This document shows, piece after piece, positions 1-60,938 of a DNA stretch of 64,000 bases (position 1 is the first letter of the stretch; every line of letters starts with the position of its first letter). The stretch comes from an uncultured Candidatus Bathyarchaeia archaeon (GTDB taxonomy: Archaea; Thermoproteota; Bathyarchaeia; Bathyarchaeales; Bathyarchaeaceae): assembly GCA_964418675.1 (NCBI GenBank), contig CAYQMM010000004.1, forward strand, positions 88,572 through 152,571. The letters run 5' to 3'. Under the pieces are notes generated by a model. That model was not told the origin of the DNA. It saw only the letters and a list, made by a program, of their open reading frames with translations, and made no database searches. The position numbers were made by a program, and so were the translations under genes.

Positions 1-436
1 AGAAGGCTGCTACTGTCTTCCCAACACCGCCCTGAAGAATGCCTTGACTGGGTTAACGAAATCCTACGAGTACGTGCTCATCGATTCTCCGGGAGGACTG
101 GAACACCTGAACAGGCGGATAGCCTCTCAGGTAGACGACATATTCGACATAATAGACCCATCCCAGAAATCCTTCCATCACGTAGAAAGAGCCTACCGAG
201 TCGCCAAGGAAGTTAAAATAGAATTCAACAACTTCTACGTGGTCGGAGGCAACAGGGTTCCAGAAGAATGGGAGGCAGAAGTTGAAAAAAGAACAAAACT
301 GGAATACCTGGGAAAAATCAGCTACGACAAAGAAGTAGAAAACTACGTCCTCTACGGCAAACCTCTGCTCGATCTACCTGAATCCTCTCTCGCCTACAAC
401 TCAGTGAAGAAAATACTCCAGAAAGCGGGATACTAG
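1..436 (+). CDS. cooC: CooC-type nickel-insertion ATPase (CODH/ACS maturation), 5'-truncated by the window edge
   Basis: Frame is open from base 2 and reads EGCYCLPN (CooC CxC motif), then VLIDSPGGLEHLNR (switch-II-like DxxxGxEH). Confidence 0.85.
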   Translation, partial: EGCYCLPNTALKNALTGLTKSYEYVLIDSPGGLEHLNRRIASQVDDIFDIIDPSQKSFHHVERAYRVAKEVKIEFNNFYVVGGNRVPEEWEAEVEKRTKLEYLGKISYDKEVENYVLYGKPLLDLPESSLAYNSVKKILQKAGY

Positions 437-478
437 TAGGAACCTAATAACAGCGTATTGTTGAAAACAGGCTTTTTC
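434..478 (-). repeat. Dispersed intergenic repeat, copy A
   Basis: Reverse complement gaaaaagcctgttttcaacaatacgctgttattaggttcctacta matches copy B at 42/45 positions; lies between convergent cooC and pfkA. Confidence 0.9.
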
Positions 479-500
479 GTAACTTCCTTCTCTTTCAGTT

Positions 501-1463
501 TTATATTGCGAGTGTCTGTGCGAGTTGTAGAAGGCTCAGGTCCAATGGTTTTTCTGTTTTGCATGATTTCTCAAGTTCGAGGCTGGTTATTCTCCCTTCC
601 TGTAAACCAACCATCCTCTTTCCCTGTTCATTTAGCAGCAGTTCAACGGCTCTGTTCCCAAACAAATTAGCTAGGAGCCTGCTTCTGGCTGTGGGATTGC
701 CGCCTCTCTGGGCGTAACCTGTAACGCTTAGCCTAACCTCAATTCCCGTTTCTTTTTCGATTTCTTTCATGAGTTTATGGGTGTCTCCAATTCCCTCTGC
801 TGCAACGATTATGCCCGACTTCTTTCCTTTTGCACTGCTCTCCTCCAGCGTCCTAACGATACTCTCCAATGTATATTCCACTTCCGGAACCAAAATTGTC
901 TCAGCCCCAACAGTTAGCCCAATCGTCAAGGCTAGAAAGCCTCTTTTCCGTCCCATAACCTCAACTATGAAGACCCTATCGTGAGAGTTGGCTGTATCCC
1001 GAATTTTATCAATCTCCGTGACCGCCGTGTTCACGGCTGTGTCAAAGCCTACAGTCTCCTCCGTTCCAAAAACGTCATTATCAATTGTCGCTGGAATCCC
1101 CACAATCTGGGCATCAGTCTCCATGCTTAACTCCAAGGCTCCTCTTAATGAGCCGTCACCACCAACAACAACGAGTCCTTCAACCTTGTTCAGAGCAAGA
1201 GTTTCCGCAGCTTTCCGCACACTCTCCCTTTTTTTGAATTCTGGGCTTCTCGATGTGCGGAGAATCGTGCCGCCCAAATGAAGTATTCCACCAACACTTC
1301 GGGGAGTCAGCCTTCTGAAGGTGTTAGTCAGCAAGCCTTCCCATCCCCTCTCGAACCCTAACGTCTGCAGACCTTTTGAGTAAGCGACCCTGACAACTGC
1401 CCGGATGGCAGCATTCATGCCCGGGGCGTCTCCGCCGCTCGTCACCAATCCTATCTTCTTCAT
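501..1463 (-). CDS. pfkA: ATP-dependent 6-phosphofructokinase, bacterial PfkA type
   Basis: TSGGDAPGMNAAIRAV, GGTILRTSR, GGDGS, TIDND, VEVMGR, GYAQRGG motifs. Confidence 0.95.
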   Translation of the reverse strand: MKKIGLVTSGGDAPGMNAAIRAVVRVAYSKGLQTLGFERGWEGLLTNTFRRLTPRSVGGILHLGGTILRTSRSPEFKKRESVRKAAETLALNKVEGLVVVGGDGSLRGALELSMETDAQIVGIPATIDNDVFGTEETVGFDTAVNTAVTEIDKIRDTANSHDRVFIVEVMGRKRGFLALTIGLTVGAETILVPEVEYTLESIVRTLEESSAKGKKSGIIVAAEGIGDTHKLMKEIEKETGIEVRLSVTGYAQRGGNPTARSRLLANLFGNRAVELLLNEQGKRMVGLQEGRITSLELEKSCKTEKPLDLSLLQLAQTLAI

Positions 1464-2953: not shown

Positions 2954-4126
2954 ATGCGAGTTCTATTCTGTCCTTCTGGCGTGGGTTTGGGGCATGTTGG
3001 TCGTTGTATCCCCATAGCTCGGCGGCTTGAAAGAGACGGAGCCGAAGTACTCTTCTCAACTTACCGAGAGGGCATCAAGTATGTTCAGCATGAAGGCTTT
3101 CAGGTAGTGGAAGCTCCATCCATTGGCGTCGCGGTTAAACCCGACGGAACCATCGACTTCAGGCAAACCACAGTAAAGCCCGGACCTTTCATGGCTGTCT
3201 TCACTTCCTGGCAGCAGGTTGATGCTGAAACCAAATTTATGAAGGCTTTTGAACCCGATGTGGTCGTTTCGGATTCGCGGGCTTCTTCTCTCTTGGCTGC
3301 AAAACTGCTTGGAATACCTAAAATCTGCATTCTAAACCAATTTCAGGTAATAATTCCGCGGCATACAAGGTTTCTGAGGCTCGCCAGACTGGCAGACGCC
3401 TTCACATTGACGGTTATCGGAAAAATATGGACAAGCGCCCTCCAAGCGCTGATTCCAGATTTCCCTCCACCCTACACGATTTCGACCAGAAATCTGCATA
3501 TTCCAAGGGCTTACCATAAAAAGATTAAATTTATTGGTCCCATTCTGCCTGTGCGTCCAGACGACCTGTCCGACAAAAAGGAACTTCGGAAGAAACTAGG
3601 TTTGGCTGAGGATAAGCCTCTGATTTTTGCGCCCATCAGTGGACCCGCGAAGGAGCGTGCCTATTTCACGGGCATCCTTCGGCAAATCTTCCGTAAATTC
3701 CCTGATGACATTCAGGTAGTTATGTCCCTTGGCTATCCTGAGGCTTCGGCAGAGCCTGTTAAGGATGGAAACTTGATTATTCACGGATGGATTCCTAACC
3801 GTTTTGAATATCTTAAAGCCTCTGATGTTGTTGTCTCTAGGGTTGGTCATGGAACGGTTTCCCAGTCTGTTTGCTATGGCAAGCCGCAGATTCTTGTTCC
3901 CACACCAAGTCACACAGAACAGCTTAACAATGCTAAGAAGGCTGTTGAATTAGGCGTAGCGGAGATTGTTCAACAGGAAGACCTAAGCAAGGATGTTCTG
4001 CTGGCGGCTGTCAAAAAAATTCTGGAGAACAGCAAATTTCAGGAGAGAACAGAACAAATCCAGAAGGAAGTCCTGAAATGGGATGGCTTGGAAACCGCCG
4101 CCAAAATAATTGTTGATGCGGCATAA
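2954..4126 (+). CDS. GT-B glycosyltransferase (MurG/GT28-like)
   Basis: N-terminal GVGLGHVGR and C-terminal SRVGHGT...EQLNNA motifs. Confidence 0.8.
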   Translation: MRVLFCPSGVGLGHVGRCIPIARRLERDGAEVLFSTYREGIKYVQHEGFQVVEAPSIGVAVKPDGTIDFRQTTVKPGPFMAVFTSWQQVDAETKFMKAFEPDVVVSDSRASSLLAAKLLGIPKICILNQFQVIIPRHTRFLRLARLADAFTLTVIGKIWTSALQALIPDFPPPYTISTRNLHIPRAYHKKIKFIGPILPVRPDDLSDKKELRKKLGLAEDKPLIFAPISGPAKERAYFTGILRQIFRKFPDDIQVVMSLGYPEASAEPVKDGNLIIHGWIPNRFEYLKASDVVVSRVGHGTVSQSVCYGKPQILVPTPSHTEQLNNAKKAVELGVAEIVQQEDLSKDVLLAAVKKILENSKFQERTEQIQKEVLKWDGLETAAKIIVDAA

Positions 4127-7249: not shown

Positions 7250-7882
7250 GTGCTCATAAAGAAGGGTGCCGAAGCCAGCTTATTCTTGGAGGAGTGGCAT
7301 AACCGCAAGGTCATAATGAAGCGGCGATTGCCCAAAAGGTATCGTCTCCCAGAACTTGACATGGAGATTCGTTCTCAACGGACAGTGCATGAGCCCCACA
7401 TCATCCACAAAGCCAAGGAGGCGGGGGTTCCTACGCCCACAATTTTCATGGTTGACGTGGCAGACGCCAACATCATAATGGAGTTTGTGGAGGGAAAACA
7501 GGTTAAAGAGATTTTAGACCACGTTTCTCCGGAAGAGAGGCTGAGGCTGAGTGATCATGTTGGCAGAATGATTGGGCGCCTCCACAAGCACGGAATCATC
7601 CACGGCGACCTCACAACATCAAATATGATTCTGACGCCCTACGGCAAAGTTGTCTTCGTTGACTTCGGATTAAGTGAAAGGTCCAAGGAGCTGGAATCAA
7701 AGGGTGTTGACCTTCATCTCATGAAGCGGGCTCTCCAGAGCACCCACTACAAGCATGCAAAGGAGTGTTTTGAAGCTGTCATGAAGGGATACGGTGAAGT
7801 AGTGGGAAAAGAAGAGGCGAAAAAGGTTACTGCTAAGATTCGGGAGATAGAGAAGAGAGGACGCTATGTTTCAGAGAGATGA
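7250..7882 (+). CDS. bud32: KEOPS kinase Bud32
   Basis: KKGAEA, IHGDLTTSN, VDFGL. Confidence 0.95.
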   Translation: MLIKKGAEASLFLEEWHNRKVIMKRRLPKRYRLPELDMEIRSQRTVHEPHIIHKAKEAGVPTPTIFMVDVADANIIMEFVEGKQVKEILDHVSPEERLRLSDHVGRMIGRLHKHGIIHGDLTTSNMILTPYGKVVFVDFGLSERSKELESKGVDLHLMKRALQSTHYKHAKECFEAVMKGYGEVVGKEEAKKVTAKIREIEKRGRYVSER

Positions 7883-11184: not shown

Positions 11185-11571
11185 ATGAGCAACGGTGAAC
11201 AGGTCGAAAAGGAGGACCCTATAAAAATTCACAAAGAAGGAACAACCTTGGCTGACGTCGGGAAATTCGAGGAGGCAGCAGAGAAGTACCTGCTGGCGTC
11301 TGAACTGTATGAGAAGAACAAGAACTTTTTCGATGCCTCCTATGCTCTGTTTAAGGCGGCGGAATGTAATTTTCAGCTGAAGGATTATGGTACAGCTAAG
11401 GAACGCTTTCTCAAGGCAGCGGAGTTGGCGTTTAAGATGGGCTATGACCGCTTTGGAGTCAGCGCCCTAGAGTATGCCCTTGACAGCTACAAAGCCCTGG
11501 ACGAAGAAGACCAAACAGAGGAACTTAAAAAGAAGATAAAAGAAGTGAAAACCAAACTCCAAAGTTTCTAA
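11185..11571 (+). CDS. TPR / SNAP-like all-helical protein
   Basis: Repeated helix pairs: FEEAAEKYLLASELYEK, ALFKAAEC, AKERFLKAAELA. Confidence 0.6.
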   Translation: MSNGEQVEKEDPIKIHKEGTTLADVGKFEEAAEKYLLASELYEKNKNFFDASYALFKAAECNFQLKDYGTAKERFLKAAELAFKMGYDRFGVSALEYALDSYKALDEEDQTEELKKKIKEVKTKLQSF

Positions 11572-11630: not shown

Positions 11631-11686
11631 TTTTTCAGGAAAAAGTCTGTTTTCAACAATACGCTGTTATTAGGCTCCTAATATGA
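11631..11686 (+). repeat. Dispersed intergenic repeat, copy B (reference copy)
   Basis: tttttcaggaaaaagtctgttttcaacaatacgctgttattaggctcctaatatga; contains the palindrome TATTAGG-CT-CCTAATA. Confidence 0.92.
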
Positions 11687-11696
11687 TTGGGGTGGG

Positions 11697-12362
11697 TTAT
11701 CGCTGTTTTTTTCTTGCTTCTGTTATGAGGTCTGTGAGGGCTGCGAAGGCTTTGCTTACGTCTTCCATGGCTAGCACGATTATCGTTTCTGTGAAGCAGC
11801 TCATGGTCTCCTCAATGTTGATGTGCCTCCGTGAAACAGCATTATAGAAAGCCTGCACACACCCCGGAGTATCAATTATCTCATCTGGACTGCGGATGAT
11901 AACAGTTGCCAGATTCTGTTTCTTATCCACCACAGCCTTTTCAGCGAAGACCGAGCAGATTTTGCTGAAGGAATTCAAGTCAGAAATCAAGGTAACCACG
12001 GATATTCCTTCAATGACCTGAAGAAATTCCCCTGAGAACCGCGCTACGGTTCTTCTTATTTTTTCCAAATTCTCTTTCGATTTTTCAACTGAAACCTTAG
12101 CCATGTCTGTTCTGATGTTCAAGACGCTTCCCGCCACAACCCTTGTTATTTTTCCCTGTAAGATGGTGTAGTTGGCTTTGGCTCGCTTAACCGAAGTTAT
12201 CACGCTTTCAAGCTTAACGTCCTGATCTACTGCTTCCTTAACCTTAGGCATCAGCATTCTGGCTATGGCGCTGTAGTTGCCGTATTCTCTCTGCAGAGCG
12301 TCCTGCAGGGAGAGGTCTTCGTCTATGAGTTTTTGTACGGTTTTTGAGATTGAATTGACCAT
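11697..12362 (-). CDS. ACT-domain amino-acid-metabolism regulator (COG2150-like)
   Basis: N-terminal helical domain NYSAIAR and C-terminal ACT with TPG...AVSRRHINIEETMSCFTE. Confidence 0.7.
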   Translation of the reverse strand: MVNSISKTVQKLIDEDLSLQDALQREYGNYSAIARMLMPKVKEAVDQDVKLESVITSVKRAKANYTILQGKITRVVAGSVLNIRTDMAKVSVEKSKENLEKIRRTVARFSGEFLQVIEGISVVTLISDLNSFSKICSVFAEKAVVDKKQNLATVIIRSPDEIIDTPGCVQAFYNAVSRRHINIEETMSCFTETIIVLAMEDVSKAFAALTDLITEARKKQR

Positions 12363-23909: not shown

Positions 23910-24323
23910 ATGGATAGGATTCTCTTAAGATTCTCTGAAGAAAACGTTGAGAAACCAATCACGGCACAGGTGATTCTTGAACTGGGAATACCGATTAGAA
24001 TTGTGGCTGCAACAGTTGACGCCCATGGTGGGGACATCCTGATAGAGGTGCCTGCCGTTCACATCGATAAGATCGTTAAAGCCTTCAGAGACAAGGGTGT
24101 AGACGTCACCTTTCCGAAGCTGATTGAGATAGATTGCGAAAAATGCATTGATTGCGGCGCCTGCTACGCCCTCTGTCCCGTGGACGCCATATCTTTCGAT
24201 GAGGATTACTCTGTAGTTTTCGACGAGAAGACATGTATCGGCAGCCCCTGCGGCTTATGCGTCAACGCTTGTCCGGCTAGAGCCATAACACTTGTTGAGC
24301 AGCATCGTAGCAATCAAAAATGA
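23910..24323 (+). CDS. NIL-domain 2x[4Fe-4S] ferredoxin (partner subunit)
   Basis: NIL-like N-terminus, CIDCGACYALCP and CIGSPCGLCVNACP. Confidence 0.88.
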   Translation: MDRILLRFSEENVEKPITAQVILELGIPIRIVAATVDAHGGDILIEVPAVHIDKIVKAFRDKGVDVTFPKLIEIDCEKCIDCGACYALCPVDAISFDEDYSVVFDEKTCIGSPCGLCVNACPARAITLVEQHRSNQK

Positions 24324-25033
24324 AAACAAAGAACCTCTTCAAACGGGCTTTCCGCCTCAAAGAATCAAACTGCACAATAATAGCAGACAAAGAAGACACC
24401 ATCGAGAAGGCAATATCCTCAATAACATACCACAGGAGACAGCTTGAGAAATACATACAAGACCATCCAGAATTTCTTTATAGTCTCCAACCGGTTCCAG
24501 TGGAAAAGGGACCAAAGGTAGCCAGGTTGATGGCTGAGGCTTCCTTGAAGGCGGAGGTTGGACCCATGGCTGCTGTTGCCGGAGTGTTAGCTGACCTAGC
24601 AGTTGAAGAGATGATTCACGCCGGAGGTAAGGTTGCCGTGGTAGAGAACGGGGGAGAAGTCTCCGCTGTTTCAAACCAGCCCATCGACATTGCCTTGGCG
24701 GCGGGTGATGCTCCCCTCTCAAGAGAGATGGGCTTCAGATTGAAAGACTTCCCTATAGGAGTAGCCACGAGCTCAGGGTTGTATAGCCACGCTTTAAGTT
24801 TCGGCGAGGCGGAAGCTGTGACTGTTTTTGCTGTTGACGCTGGGGTTGCTGATGCTGCAGCTACGGCTGTGGCGAACCTGATAAAGGGGGATGACGTCCG
24901 CGGTGTAATTAAAGTGGGAATAGAGCGAGCCTTGAACATAGACGGTGTTAAGGGCGTCTTTATCCTGTATCGGGGAGTTGTGGGAAAAGCTGGACAGGTC
25001 CCAGAACTGATAAAAGTGAACCCTCAGGAGTAA
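24320..25033 (+). CDS. UPF0280/COG2122 ApbE-like sulfide-assimilation protein
   Basis: VGPMAAVAG, VENGGE, GVATSSG, SFGEAEAVTV, DAAATAVAN. Confidence 0.85.
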   Translation: MKTKNLFKRAFRLKESNCTIIADKEDTIEKAISSITYHRRQLEKYIQDHPEFLYSLQPVPVEKGPKVARLMAEASLKAEVGPMAAVAGVLADLAVEEMIHAGGKVAVVENGGEVSAVSNQPIDIALAAGDAPLSREMGFRLKDFPIGVATSSGLYSHALSFGEAEAVTVFAVDAGVADAAATAVANLIKGDDVRGVIKVGIERALNIDGVKGVFILYRGVVGKAGQVPELIKVNPQE

Positions 25034-25071: not shown

Positions 25072-25127
25072 TTTTTCAGGAAAAAACCTGTTTTCAACAA
25101 TACGCTGTGATTAGGCTCCAAATATGA
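25072..25127 (+). repeat. Dispersed intergenic repeat, copy C
   Basis: 52/56 identical to copy B. Confidence 0.92.
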
Positions 25128-25202
25128 AGGCTCACTCTTGTTTGTTTGATAAGAAAACTAATTTAGGGCACCAAAGATAAATTGGGTTGGGAGATTGTTA
25201 GG

Positions 25203-25442
25203 ATGCCTATCGCGTATGTTTTGATAACCACAGAGGCAGGTGCTGTGAAGAGTGTTTTAGAATCCCTGAAGAAGATTGATTCTGTGAAAGAGACCTACAT
25301 GGTTTACGGCGTTTACGACATCGTAGCTACTGTTAAGGCAGAGACCATGGATAAACTCAAAGAAATTGTTACGTGGGACCTAAGAGGTTTAGATAGAGTC
25401 ACGTCAACTTTAACCATGATAGTCGTTGAGGAAACAAAGTGA
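25203..25442 (+). CDS. Stand-alone Lrp/AsnC ligand-binding (RAM) domain protein
   Basis: AYVLIT...VYGVYDIVATV...VTSTLTMIV. Confidence 0.88.
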   Translation: MPIAYVLITTEAGAVKSVLESLKKIDSVKETYMVYGVYDIVATVKAETMDKLKEIVTWDLRGLDRVTSTLTMIVVEETK

Positions 25443-27291: not shown

Positions 27292-27367
27292 AGCCCGGTG
27301 GTGTAGCGGTCAATCATGGAGGCCTCTGGAGCCTCTGACGGGAGTTCGAATCTCCCCCGGGCTACCA
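27292..27367 (+). tRNA. tRNA-Gln(CTG), intronless, CCA encoded
   Basis: Acceptor AGCCCGG/CCGGGCT, anticodon arm GAGGC-CTCTGGA-GCCTC, T arm GGGAG-TTCGAAT-CTCCC; A1-U72 pair as typical of archaeal tRNA-Gln. Confidence 0.95.
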
Positions 27368-52653: not shown

Positions 52654-53361
52654 TTATTCCAGTATGATTCTTGCATCGACTGTTTTTGCTCCCTTCTCAT
52701 AAACCAATACAGGGTTCAGGTCAAGTTCTTTGATTTCTTGGTGGTCCATCACTAACCTTGAAGTGCTCAGCAAGATTTTAACTATCGTGTCTATGTCACG
52801 GGGTGGTTGGCCGCGATAGCCTCTGAGAATGGGGTACGCCTTTATTTCTGAAATCATCCCTCTGGCGTCCTCTTCGGTGATGGGGGCAATCCTGAATGCC
52901 ACGTCTTTCATCACTTCCACGAAGATTCCTCCGAAGCCGAACATCAAAGTTGGTCCAAACTGAGGGTCCTTACTTGAACCAACTATGACTTCTGTTGAGG
53001 CAGGAGCCATCTCCTGAACGAGGATGCCGTTAATCTCTGCGTTGGGTTTCACTTTCCTCACATTCTCCAAAATTTTCTTGTAGGCGTTTCCAGCGTCCTC
53101 TTGACTTCTGATGTTAAGGATTACGCCGCCTACGTCAGATTTGTGGAGTATATCGGGAGAAACAATCTTGAGAACTGTGGGGTAGCCGATTTCCTCAGAG
53201 AACTTCACTGCCTCCTCAGCAGTTCCAGCTACCCTAAACCTTGTGACAGGTATGTCATATTCCATACAGATAGTCTTAGCCTCAGGCTCAAGGAGGTAGT
53301 TTCTTCCCGCATTTCTAGCCTTCTCAAAGATTTTGGAAACCTTTCCCGACAACATTAACAT
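52654..53361 (-). CDS. acdB: ADP-forming acetate/acyl-CoA ligase beta subunit (ATP-grasp)
   Basis: LEPEAK, LKIVSPDILHKSDVGGV, DPQFGP, ELDLNPV; start moved off the repeat-overlapping TTG. Confidence 0.85.
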   Translation of the reverse strand: MLMLSGKVSKIFEKARNAGRNYLLEPEAKTICMEYDIPVTRFRVAGTAEEAVKFSEEIGYPTVLKIVSPDILHKSDVGGVILNIRSQEDAGNAYKKILENVRKVKPNAEINGILVQEMAPASTEVIVGSSKDPQFGPTLMFGFGGIFVEVMKDVAFRIAPITEEDARGMISEIKAYPILRGYRGQPPRDIDTIVKILLSTSRLVMDHQEIKELDLNPVLVYEKGAKTVDARIILE

Positions 53362-53428
53362 CCTTTTGTGGCTGTAGAGAAGTAGGTAAGTAATTTTCCC
53401 TTCTAACTCTTTCGCATACACCGCCAAA

Positions 53429-53493: not shown

Positions 53494-54177
53494 TTATGAA
53501 CGTGGCTTTCGTAGCCCGTGTTTGATTGTCTTTTCTGTTTCTATATGGATTAGCCGATGTTTTTTGCCGCAGATGGGACATGACAGAACCTGTCCCGTGT
53601 CCACTTCTTTTTTGGTTGCCTTTGGCTTCTCTACCCTCTTCTTTTCTTTCAGTTTCTCTTCTGCTGAGATTTTGGAAAGTGACCAAGCACGTTCAAGGAT
53701 GAAGAGGGTTATGAGTGCCTTTTCGTCTTCTTGCCTGCAGAGAGTAACATAGTGTTTGCCGGGCGCCGTCTTTCCAGTTGCCTCTTCATAGGATTTAATC
53801 GTGTAGTTCTCTCGGATGATGCTTGGAACCTCTTCGACGGTGGAGACGTTTTTTCGGCTAAGCCTATCATTCTCATCCGCCTGTGTTAAGGAAAGGACAT
53901 CGTAGAGCATGCCCTCAATTTTGCTAACTTGAAAGACCATGGTATTCCCTTCCAGCTGGGAGAAGCGGACACCTGCTGGACACTTAACAGCTTTGACCAT
54001 AATCTTTCCAAGTTCCTTGTCTTTGCACAGTTTAAAGAGCCAATCGCCAGTAAGGAAGTCCTTTGCTCTGTAATAGTTCACTTCACCGTTTCTCAATTGG
54101 CGCAAGCTCATGTCATACCAAGAATCACGGGGTCGGGTTTCAACCCGTCTAACCTTGATGTACTTCAGAAACTGCAA
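53494..54177 (-). CDS. Hypothetical protein with C-terminal CxxC/His Zn-finger-like motif
   Basis: 227-aa ORF ending SCPICGKKHRLIH. Confidence 0.7.
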   Translation of the reverse strand: MQFLKYIKVRRVETRPRDSWYDMSLRQLRNGEVNYYRAKDFLTGDWLFKLCKDKELGKIMVKAVKCPAGVRFSQLEGNTMVFQVSKIEGMLYDVLSLTQADENDRLSRKNVSTVEEVPSIIRENYTIKSYEEATGKTAPGKHYVTLCRQEDEKALITLFILERAWSLSKISAEEKLKEKKRVEKPKATKKEVDTGQVLSCPICGKKHRLIHIETEKTIKHGLRKPRS

Positions 54178-60882: not shown

Positions 60883-60938
60883 TTTTCAGGAAAAAGTACT
60901 GTTTTTAACAATGAAGTATTATTAGGCTCCAAATAGAA
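60883..60938 (+). repeat. Dispersed intergenic repeat, copy E
   Basis: ttttcaggaaaaagtactgtttttaacaatgaagtattattaggctccaaatagaa aligns with B and C at both ends, with a diverged centre. Confidence 0.82.

Follow-up and report, generated by a model that had tools for sequence, protein, structure and literature searches.

In a 64,000-nt stretch of DNA from an uncultured Candidatus Bathyarchaeia archaeon (contig CAYQMM010000004.1, positions 88,572 to 152,571; this whole stretch is hereafter the window), five copies of a non-coding element of about 55 bp lie at the ends of transcription units. Bathyarchaeia, archaea common in sediments, have barely been cultured, and their genome biology comes from metagenome-assembled genomes (MAGs) only. 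The element looks like a lineage-specific, dispersed, DNA-level repeat family without earlier description; it is of the same general class as repetitive extragenic palindromes (REPs), MITEs (miniature inverted-repeat transposable elements) and Correia elements, yet it answers to none of those definitions. The explanation that we favor, giving it about an even chance, is that of a REP/MITE-like repeat at transcription-unit ends whose copies recombine with one another. Such exchange would shuffle the gene blocks lying between copies and would keep the family homogeneous across species. It could take either of two routes, namely homologous recombination on the invariant blocks of 12-21 bp, or the action of a trans-acting recombinase or transposase recognizing the double-stranded blocks together with a 7+2+7 palindrome. 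The element may additionally serve as a bidirectional oligo-T terminator. Its coincidence with gene-order breaks was overlooked in the original prediction, which was made from the window alone; this link offers a concrete and testable candidate cause of genome plasticity in this clade of Bathyarchaeia. In addition, at least 18 species carry a nearly unchanged 55-bp sequence at many intergenic sites, which implies an unrecognized protein or process that recognizes it.

The repeat family and its extent

The copies present in the window, scored with a position weight matrix (PWM) built from the family, are the following.

431..485, minus strand: copy A; PWM 57.8 bits; nhmmer E=8e-14; inverted repeats I1/I2
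11632..11686, plus strand: copy B; PWM 80.3 bits; nhmmer E=1e-18; nearest to the family consensus
11668..11683, no strand: palindromic core of copy B, TATTAGG-CT-CCTAATA; two 7-bp arms and an asymmetric 2-bp center
25073..25127, plus strand: copy C; PWM 74.1 bits
53422..53476, plus strand: copy D; PWM 39.4 bits; nhmmer E=6e-10; most diverged, with a degenerate 5' part
60884..60938, plus strand: copy E; PWM 57.3 bits

All five had been recognized in the original prediction and were recovered at those places both by PWM and by repeat comparison; their coordinates hold in general, except that copy D starts about 7 nt earlier than had been given. Identities recomputed for copies B and C (52/56, 93%) and for copies A and B (42/45, 93%) are those quoted earlier, and nhmmer found no copy in the window beyond these five. 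The 18-mer TTTTCAACAATACGCTGT, taken from the core, occurs three times in the window for 0.07 occurrences expected, a number that none of 100 shuffles reached. Every copy is intergenic and located 10-60 nt past at least one stop codon, copies A and B between convergent genes and copies C, D, and E between tandem genes, which bears out the earlier description of non-coding sequence just past gene 3' ends. The palindrome of copy B and the oligo-T tracts on both strands, also reported then, are likewise present.

Information content delimits an element of about 55 nt (55-65 bp) with a soft 5' edge and a sharp 3' edge, whose consensus is ttt.c.gAAAAAAg.ttg-TTTTCAACAAT-[variable hexamer]-TGTTATTAGG-n-TCCTAATAtGa. 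It is made of four invariant blocks with short variable stretches between them, and its variable hexamer defines sub-types: CTTCTG (19), GAAGTA (15), ACGCTG (10), GTACCT (at least 6), and many singletons. The 3' part is the 7+2+7 palindrome TATTAGG-CT-CCTAATA, the center of which is flipped to AG in one sub-family (GGAGCC versus GGCTCC). As a whole, the element is A+T-rich and just 16 of its ~55 nt are palindromic, while small subterminal palindromes are found at both of its ends.

The family reaches far past the window, into many related Bathyarchaeia. The pattern TTTTNAACANNNNNNTNTNATTAGGNTCC, which has 19 fixed bases and matches all five window copies, was run on contigs of one genome per species; it matched at least 95 genome stretches, nearly all from Bathyarchaeia/Bathyarchaeota MAGs and belonging to at least 18 assemblies, among them the closed chromosomes CP070820 (Bathyarchaeum sp.) and CP070759, plus BA2. 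Two matches in bacteria are due to chance (L049, an Elusimicrobiales MAG, and L093). Core matches fall in intergenic DNA in 100 cases out of 102, the chance match L049 being one of the remaining two. The family PWM detected 125 copies in 690 kb of element-bearing loci and none in shuffles, to which nhmmer added only about 10 partial copies. Eight copies of mixed strand are found in CP070820 among the matches listed, and extrapolation from the 5 copies per 64 kb of the window would give roughly 100 copies per genome. A viral origin was rejected: among 2.9 million viral contigs, none matched the pattern. No named relative had been known at the outset, and this still holds: Rfam gives no hit at E<=1, two element-specific 12-mers appear in no paper, and the searchable literature contains no report of such repeats in Bathyarchaeia. 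The repeats are no assembly artifact, a concern raised early on: copies occupy orthologous positions in other species, and the 5' part of copy A is present, up to the contig end, in an independent assembly (Logan SRR14802574).

The element is also found on contigs filed as Desulfobacterales, Dehalococcoidales, or "bacterium" MAGs (L037, L058, L060, and L068). Of these, L060 is probably a mis-binned Bathyarchaeia contig, since it carries a gene 88% identical to the window open reading frame (ORF) 2-436.

Gene order and proposed exchange between copies

At loci selected with the pattern, the gene lying across the element was the same in only 4 of 28 pairs with the element in both loci, all four of them at the tRNA-Glu site, and in 0 of 18 pairs with the element in one locus. 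At spacers without the element, the neighbor was the same in 64/84 pairs overall, in 22/37 pairs at transcription-unit boundaries, and in 10/23 pairs for spacers of at least 100 nt.

An unbiased set was provided by 80 metagenome loci (L096-L175) chosen by the fibrillarin gene only, the element being disregarded. The adjacency of Nop56 and fibrillarin is retained wherever these loci include the upstream flank. Downstream, the element is located 11-31 nt past fibrillarin, and co-oriented with it, in 27 of the 80 loci, all of which have a fibrillarin at least 77% identical to that of the window. The deeper clade lacks it; there, the same two genes, C0 and C1, stably follow fibrillarin, and this nop56-fibrillarin-C0(~315 aa)-C1 order is apparently the ancestral arrangement. 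In contrast, about 17 different genes follow the fibrillarin-linked element, and ribosomal protein L3 is found there in the window only, and in 0/80 related loci. At 80-85% fibrillarin identity, the downstream neighbor is shared in 0/113 pairs where both loci have the element, versus 32/87 where neither does; at 85-90% identity, these figures are 8/93 and 14/27, respectively.

Comparison of close relatives that differ downstream at this locus allowed breakpoints to be placed relative to the core, on a scale where the element spans -18..+37.

L102/L104: -21
L096/L098: 0-11
L111/L104: somewhere in -14..37
L116/L102: 30-38
L109/L110: 33-39

These five independent breakpoints are located either within the element, in its TTTTCAAC block, or at one of its edges, the commonest place being immediately outside the palindrome, and among the relatives compared none was found in the spacer ahead of the element or well beyond it. 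Truncated copies in L097, L124, and L140, which keep the 5' module alone, are cut in or near the same TTTTCAAC block, and the fibrillarin-site copies of L146 and L154 are decayed.

Sequence variation among copies is also suggestive of exchange. In 43 positional pairs, element identity ranges from 0.60 to 0.93 (mostly 0.73-0.93), and most flanks are at ~0.5, as in random global alignments; copy C, for instance, is found at the same position and with the same hexamer ACGCTG in L020 and L006, the rest of the spacer being unalignable. Orthologous copies are no more similar than unrelated ones, and orthologous sites often differ in sub-type (e.g., GAAGTA versus ACGCTG) or in copy number; at one and the same site, copies can differ in hexamer or core type, have the core flipped, be duplicated in tandem or truncated, or have decayed. 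Identity is slightly higher within a genome than between genomes (0.798 versus 0.765, p<0.0005), and distant genomes such as BA2 share private variants, e.g., ACATT or GGATCC. Sub-type switching, the lack of excess similarity between orthologues, the within-genome identity, and the private variants together point to exchange between copies, i.e., concerted evolution, rather than to simple vertical conservation.

Among intergenic regions, 23% of the convergent, 15% of the divergent, and 11% of the tandem ones contain the element, which is over-represented about 2.4-fold per base in convergent spacers. Copies take mixed orientations with respect to neighboring genes: 23 are convergent, 19 divergent, 23 in tandem and co-oriented, and 16 in tandem and anti-oriented. 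Where the element adjoins a tRNA gene (eight cases), it is downstream of the tRNA each time, mostly 16-67 nt off and in seven cases co-oriented, with the tRNA-Glu site being common to four species and the tRNA-Pro site to two. The element carries mostly T4-T5 runs on its forward strand and T5-T7 runs on its reverse strand, an archaeal oligo-T terminator being defined by at least 5 T on the coding strand soon past the transcription-unit end; at anti-oriented gene 3' ends, its reverse complement yields a T5-T7 run in 22/24 cases, and the spacer is without a T4+ run in 20/24. Based on these runs, the element may have a secondary role as a bidirectional archaeal oligo-T terminator, and its long retention after fibrillarin and tRNA-Glu would follow from such a role. 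Like oligo-T or aCPSF1-dependent terminators, it places T-runs directly past stop codons and tRNA genes, here on both strands. Known archaeal terminators, however, are U-tracts that do not need ~50 conserved bases (PMC8716108), whereas the element has ~40 further invariant bases; neither these bases nor the presence of the element in divergent spacers is explained by termination alone. If the two-way terminator role were true, the element would be a handy marker of transcription-unit ends in annotation.

Several other features of the fibrillarin locus were noted. A ~200-nt insertion, with the element at +171, is found in L118, L119, L121, L135, and L143; in L106, the stretch between two 5' modules is apparently deleted; and C0 has a clear TTTATAAG/TTTATATG box ~45 nt ahead of its ATG.

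Alternative explanations and known systems

A number of points weigh against recombination between copies. With or without the element, gene order is lost faster at transcription-unit boundaries than inside operons, and the control for this boundary effect rests on small numbers (the 22/37 and 10/23 given above). Genes were called with a simple, crude codon-usage caller written for this analysis, and the locus pairs are phylogenetically non-independent. That the element is kept 11-31 nt past fibrillarin in many species fits a selected host function, such as termination, equally well. No clean filled-versus-empty pair with both neighbors conserved was found, and neither were target duplications or terminal inverted repeats; moreover, no recombinase or transposase was identified or linked to the copies in the neighbor sets or in the 690 kb of loci. 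Most of the sequences analyzed are, in addition, contigs from short-read MAGs or metagenomes, which could be mis-joined at the repeat. Contigs often end in or beside the element (L176, L034, L058, L073, L117, and L069), which indicates that it fragments short-read assemblies; this lowers MAG contiguity and may cause mis-joins. One of them, the Logan SRR14802574 contig (L176), whose phosphofructokinase (PFK) is identical to that of the window, ends inside copy A (3964-4015). A wholesale assembly artifact is nonetheless disfavored, because independent samples show the same downstream neighbors again (C3/C4 and C2/C5 in five loci each, and C8/C9, C11/C12, and C7 in two each).

Recombination between copies could also be more specialized, the element being the recognition or crossover site of a Bathyarchaeaceae-specific trans-acting recombinase and its ~100 copies a dispersed recombination platform. 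The 7+2+7 palindrome, with an asymmetric CT center that is flipped in some copies, has the look of such a site, but breakpoints are spread over three places or more, namely both edges (5' and 3') and the TTTTCAAC block; because they are at no single fixed position, homologous exchange fits at least as well, and we regard a dedicated platform as quite unlikely. If it were true, the chromosome would be split into exchangeable gene blocks, each ending in an element, which would amount to an integron- or shufflon-like, chromosome-wide reordering of housekeeping transcription units in an archaeon. A serious, albeit doubtful, contender is a host cis-element under purifying selection, i.e., a double-stranded site for a lineage-specific protein that would act as a roadblock terminator, as an insulator, or in chromosome organization; the link to rearrangements would then be a side effect of location at transcription-unit boundaries. 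Blocks of 8-21 bp are indeed invariant over at least 18 species in the midst of randomized intergenic DNA, and the perfect 7+2+7 palindrome lacks covariation of the RNA type, in keeping with a site that a protein dimer recognizes. Long retention at fixed distances past fibrillarin, tRNA-Glu, and tRNA-Pro also argues for this explanation, as do the oligo-T runs on both strands, often the sole ones past the stop codon. It accounts less well for the fibrillarin-site copies that are decayed or truncated in L146, L154, L097, L124, and L140, and for the presence of the element in 15% of divergent promoter regions, where no terminator is needed. Wholesale sub-type switches at orthologous sites, e.g., from GAAGTA to ACGCTG, are in turn not explained by point mutation under constraint, and oligo-T termination is, as already mentioned, possible without the long conserved sequence.

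A trans-mobilized origin was among the options named in the original prediction. A classical non-autonomous transposable element (a MITE, or a PATE/REP of the IS200/IS605 type) inserting intergenically would be multi-copy and dispersed, as observed, with its three main sub-families (CTTCTG, GAAGTA, and ACGCTG) common to genomes; the sharp 3' end, the small subterminal palindromes, the tandem and head-to-head composites, and the slightly raised genome-specific similarity are compatible with it as well. We nevertheless find it unlikely. The 5' end TTTTCAGAAAAAAG is no inverted copy of the 3' end GGCTCCTAATATGA, and the longest word shared by a copy's own 5' and 3' flanks averages 5.69, versus 5.66 for swapped flanks (102 copies), although very short target duplications could escape detection with such a fuzzy 5' edge. 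Insertion polymorphism with conserved flanks was seen in 0/18 cases, and many copies are at orthologous positions across species. Transposases are absent from the 25 most frequent Pfam families of each of two 94-protein neighbor sets (whole genomes were not searched), these families being housekeeping or surface proteins of ordinary kinds; multi-copy proteins are absent from the 690 kb of element-bearing loci, as are DNA repeats of more than 56 nt from the window and copies of the element from the viral contigs. Taken together, the non-inverted ends, the lack of target duplication and of a neighboring transposase, and the absence of multi-copy proteins disfavor both a classical MITE and the scar of an insertion sequence (IS), an alternative that had been raised from the start.

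Two further explanations concern transcription. A promoter made of the transcription factor B recognition element (BRE)- and TATA-like AGAAAAAAG-CTG-TTTTCAAC, with a start at ..TAATATG, could drive downstream genes, leaderless small ORFs, or non-coding RNAs. The succession of an A-run and a T-run resembles the promoter signals that we derived for this lineage (an A-rich BRE, AAAAAAG, followed by a TTTTTAAG/TTTAAATA/TTTATAAG box ~45 nt before the ATG, along with a G-rich Shine-Dalgarno sequence), conservation stops sharply ~30 nt downstream, at the expected position of a start site, and there is a precedent in the 58-bp intergenic repeats of halovirus HF2, which carry promoters (PMC8707807). 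Scored with the lineage model, however, the element reaches only ~3 bits, for a median of 6 in real promoters, and its BRE-like and TATA-like parts are 3 bases farther apart. Its placement is also wrong: within 60 nt of its 3' side, 20 of 26 neighbors are convergent stop codons and 6 are gene starts, none of the eight tRNA adjacencies has a copy directly upstream of the tRNA, and a promoter role is further disfavored by the mixed orientation relative to genes. Nothing downstream is conserved in orthologues, and ORFs from the terminal ATG are no longer than controls (median 18 versus 14 codons, mean 22.7 versus 23.6). A promoter was thus rejected as very improbable; a hidden small gene was rejected as well: a 31-codon ORF does run across the 92-nt tandem pairs, but its frame is lost with periods of 89-96 nt. 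A structured or guide RNA, whether a 3'-UTR element as originally suggested, a small RNA (sRNA), a C/D-box sRNA, or a CRISPR-like repeat, is in our opinion scarcely credible. Three small inverted repeats can be drawn in the element, tandem pairs have periods of 82-92 nt, and the reverse strand ends in ..ATTGTTGAAAAC, which is faintly reminiscent of the ATTGAAAG end that archaeal CRISPR repeats have. Fold energies for both strands of the five copies are, however, the same as those of shuffles (z from -1.3 to +1.35), RNAalifold on 112 copies predicts no pairs, and Rfam gives no match at the gathering threshold either. In the three drawable hairpins, changes break pairs and are uncompensated, with one double change, as in shuffles; in the palindrome arms, changes disrupt pairing and are never compensated. 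Inspection of the alignment shows no RUGAUGA box, and CTGA in some copies only; C and D boxes are lacking at the required places, and orientation to genes is, again, mixed. Copies are mostly solitary, arrays do not exceed 2-3 units, and the "spacers" are conserved between genomes rather than unique. What is conserved is the sequence of the element and not a fold.

A repeat of this kind has several partial parallels. Bacterial REPs and BIMEs are repetitive extragenic palindromes mobilized by RAYT (Y1 HUH) transposases, the cognate RAYT gene being flanked by REPs. They are G+C-rich hairpins with a conserved 5' tetranucleotide of the GTAG type and have been implicated in termination, mRNA ends, and chromosomal rearrangement. 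The element resembles them in being short, extragenic, present in an estimated ~100 copies or more, enriched at gene 3' ends and in convergent spacers, conserved within a lineage, and found as single copies or as tandem or inverted pairs. It differs in that it is A+T-rich, ~55 bp long, and mostly non-palindromic, folds no better than shuffles, and shows no pairing covariation; furthermore, no RAYT-like gene turned up, although no whole-genome protein search for RAYT was made. MITEs, for their part, are defined by terminal inverted repeats and target-site duplications; they can bring terminators or promoters with them and mark hot spots of rearrangement and integration. Neisseria has the Correia elements and NIME/dRS3 repeats, which are of this type. 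Like them, the element is non-coding, dispersed, and structured into sub-families, but it has no terminal inverted repeats or target duplications, and an arm-core-arm layout is seen in L042 only. In Thermococcales, integrases drive chromosomal inversions at short dispersed sequences. There, too, archaeal gene order is scrambled at short repeats, and the palindrome of the element, with its asymmetric 2-bp center, resembles a recombinase crossover site; the differences are that no recombinase was identified here and that breakpoints are at no fixed position. Finally, the class I intergenic repeats of halovirus HF2 are 58 bp long, lie upstream of genes within one viral genome, and can drive a reporter (PMC8707807). 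They share with the element an archaeal origin, a length of ~58 bp, A+T-richness, and a location between transcription units, whereas the element is chromosomal, absent from viral contigs, mostly at gene 3' ends, and fails promoter tests.

Gene neighbors and composite forms

In the window, copy A lies 15 nt past the stop codon of, and is co-oriented with, the phosphofructokinase gene (501-1463, minus strand; Pfam PFK), and its palindrome end overlaps or contains the TAG stop codon of the convergent ORF 2-436 (plus strand), and the element is kept at the 3' end of the ORF 2-436 orthologues of L084, L060, and L036. Copy B is found 60 nt past a TPR gene (11185-11571, plus strand) and 10 nt from the stop codon of the convergent gene 11697-12362 (minus strand), whose L062 orthologue is likewise bordered at its 3' end by the element, as a tandem pair. 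Copy C is located 39 nt past a gene of unknown function (24320-25033, plus strand) and 55 nt ahead of a small ORF (25182-25442, plus strand). Copy D lies 17 nt past the stop codon of 53494-54177 (minus strand, unknown function), in the orientation opposite to that gene, and abuts or overlaps the called TTG start of an ATP-grasp_5 gene of acetyl-CoA-synthetase type (52654-53427, minus strand). The Pfam match of the latter protein begins only at residue 36, and the true start is probably further downstream than the called TTG. Copy E, lastly, is 20 nt past the fibrillarin stop codon (60863) and 118 nt ahead of the gene for ribosomal protein L3 (61056); an exact-protein look-up with the window L3 gave no match, and one with the window PFK gave a single contig, the Logan contig that stops within copy A. 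A tie to one gene family was considered and rejected, the unknown genes beside copies A-D being mutually unrelated.

In other genomes, the element also occurs as pairs of copies in tandem with fixed periods of 82-83 nt or 89-96 nt, the spacers of which are conserved between loci and genomes.

Tandem pairs, 92-nt type: L094 3002-3148, L041, L067, L052, L092, L028, L021
Tandem pairs, 82-83-nt type: L001, L024, L032, L044, L025, L062

Spacers within these pairs are 27-37 nt long (for example GCTCGGGAATTTGGACAACAAATCATATTCTTGCTTGG), and a partial third 5' module is sometimes present upstream; the pairs amount to a composite repeat unit. Head-to-head arrangements are represented by L042 (2887-2974), the sole composite with an arm-core-arm layout, in which two copies share one palindrome. 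In L002, two 105-nt inverted repeats (1668-1772 and 7673-7777; 94% complementary), each containing an element with a doubled core (TTATTAGGATCC-TAATAGGCTCC-AAATA), bracket 5.9 kb that encode tRNA-Ala, S12, S7, and EF-1alpha. A composite transposon was rejected, as the bracketed genes are those for S12, S7, EF-1alpha, and the tRNA, with no mobile element; given such an arrangement, a core translation operon might be inverted.

A variant with GTTAGTTAAYACTG in place of the A-rich 5' module, and with junctions that read GTTAAC-A.A.CTAAAAACTAAG, was encountered in L018 (7254-7308), L036 (3879-3933), and L079 (7029-7083), as well as just past fibrillarin in L097 and L124; it may represent another repeat family related to the first, or else a product that arises recurrently by recombination. 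A short motif, RTGTGAAY (e.g., GAAAGTGTGAAC and AAATGTGAAT), recurs near elements in L002, L025, L045, L054, L062, and L090. Median intergenic lengths are 228-431 nt with the element versus 34-164 nt without it, which suggests that the longer, element-bearing spacers hold further unannotated non-coding content. In several genomes, NosD/beta-helix surface proteins with a conserved C-terminus (..IIYKRRLAKT..) are encoded convergently to elements; NosD/beta-helix genes lie downstream of the element in L023, L038, L064, L015, L026, L030, and L044, twice within one genome. The sole tRNA of the window, tRNA-Gln(CTG) at 27292-27367 (plus strand), has no element nearby; about 40 nt upstream of it is the sequence ATTTATTAGGC, which shares TTATTAGG with the element core.

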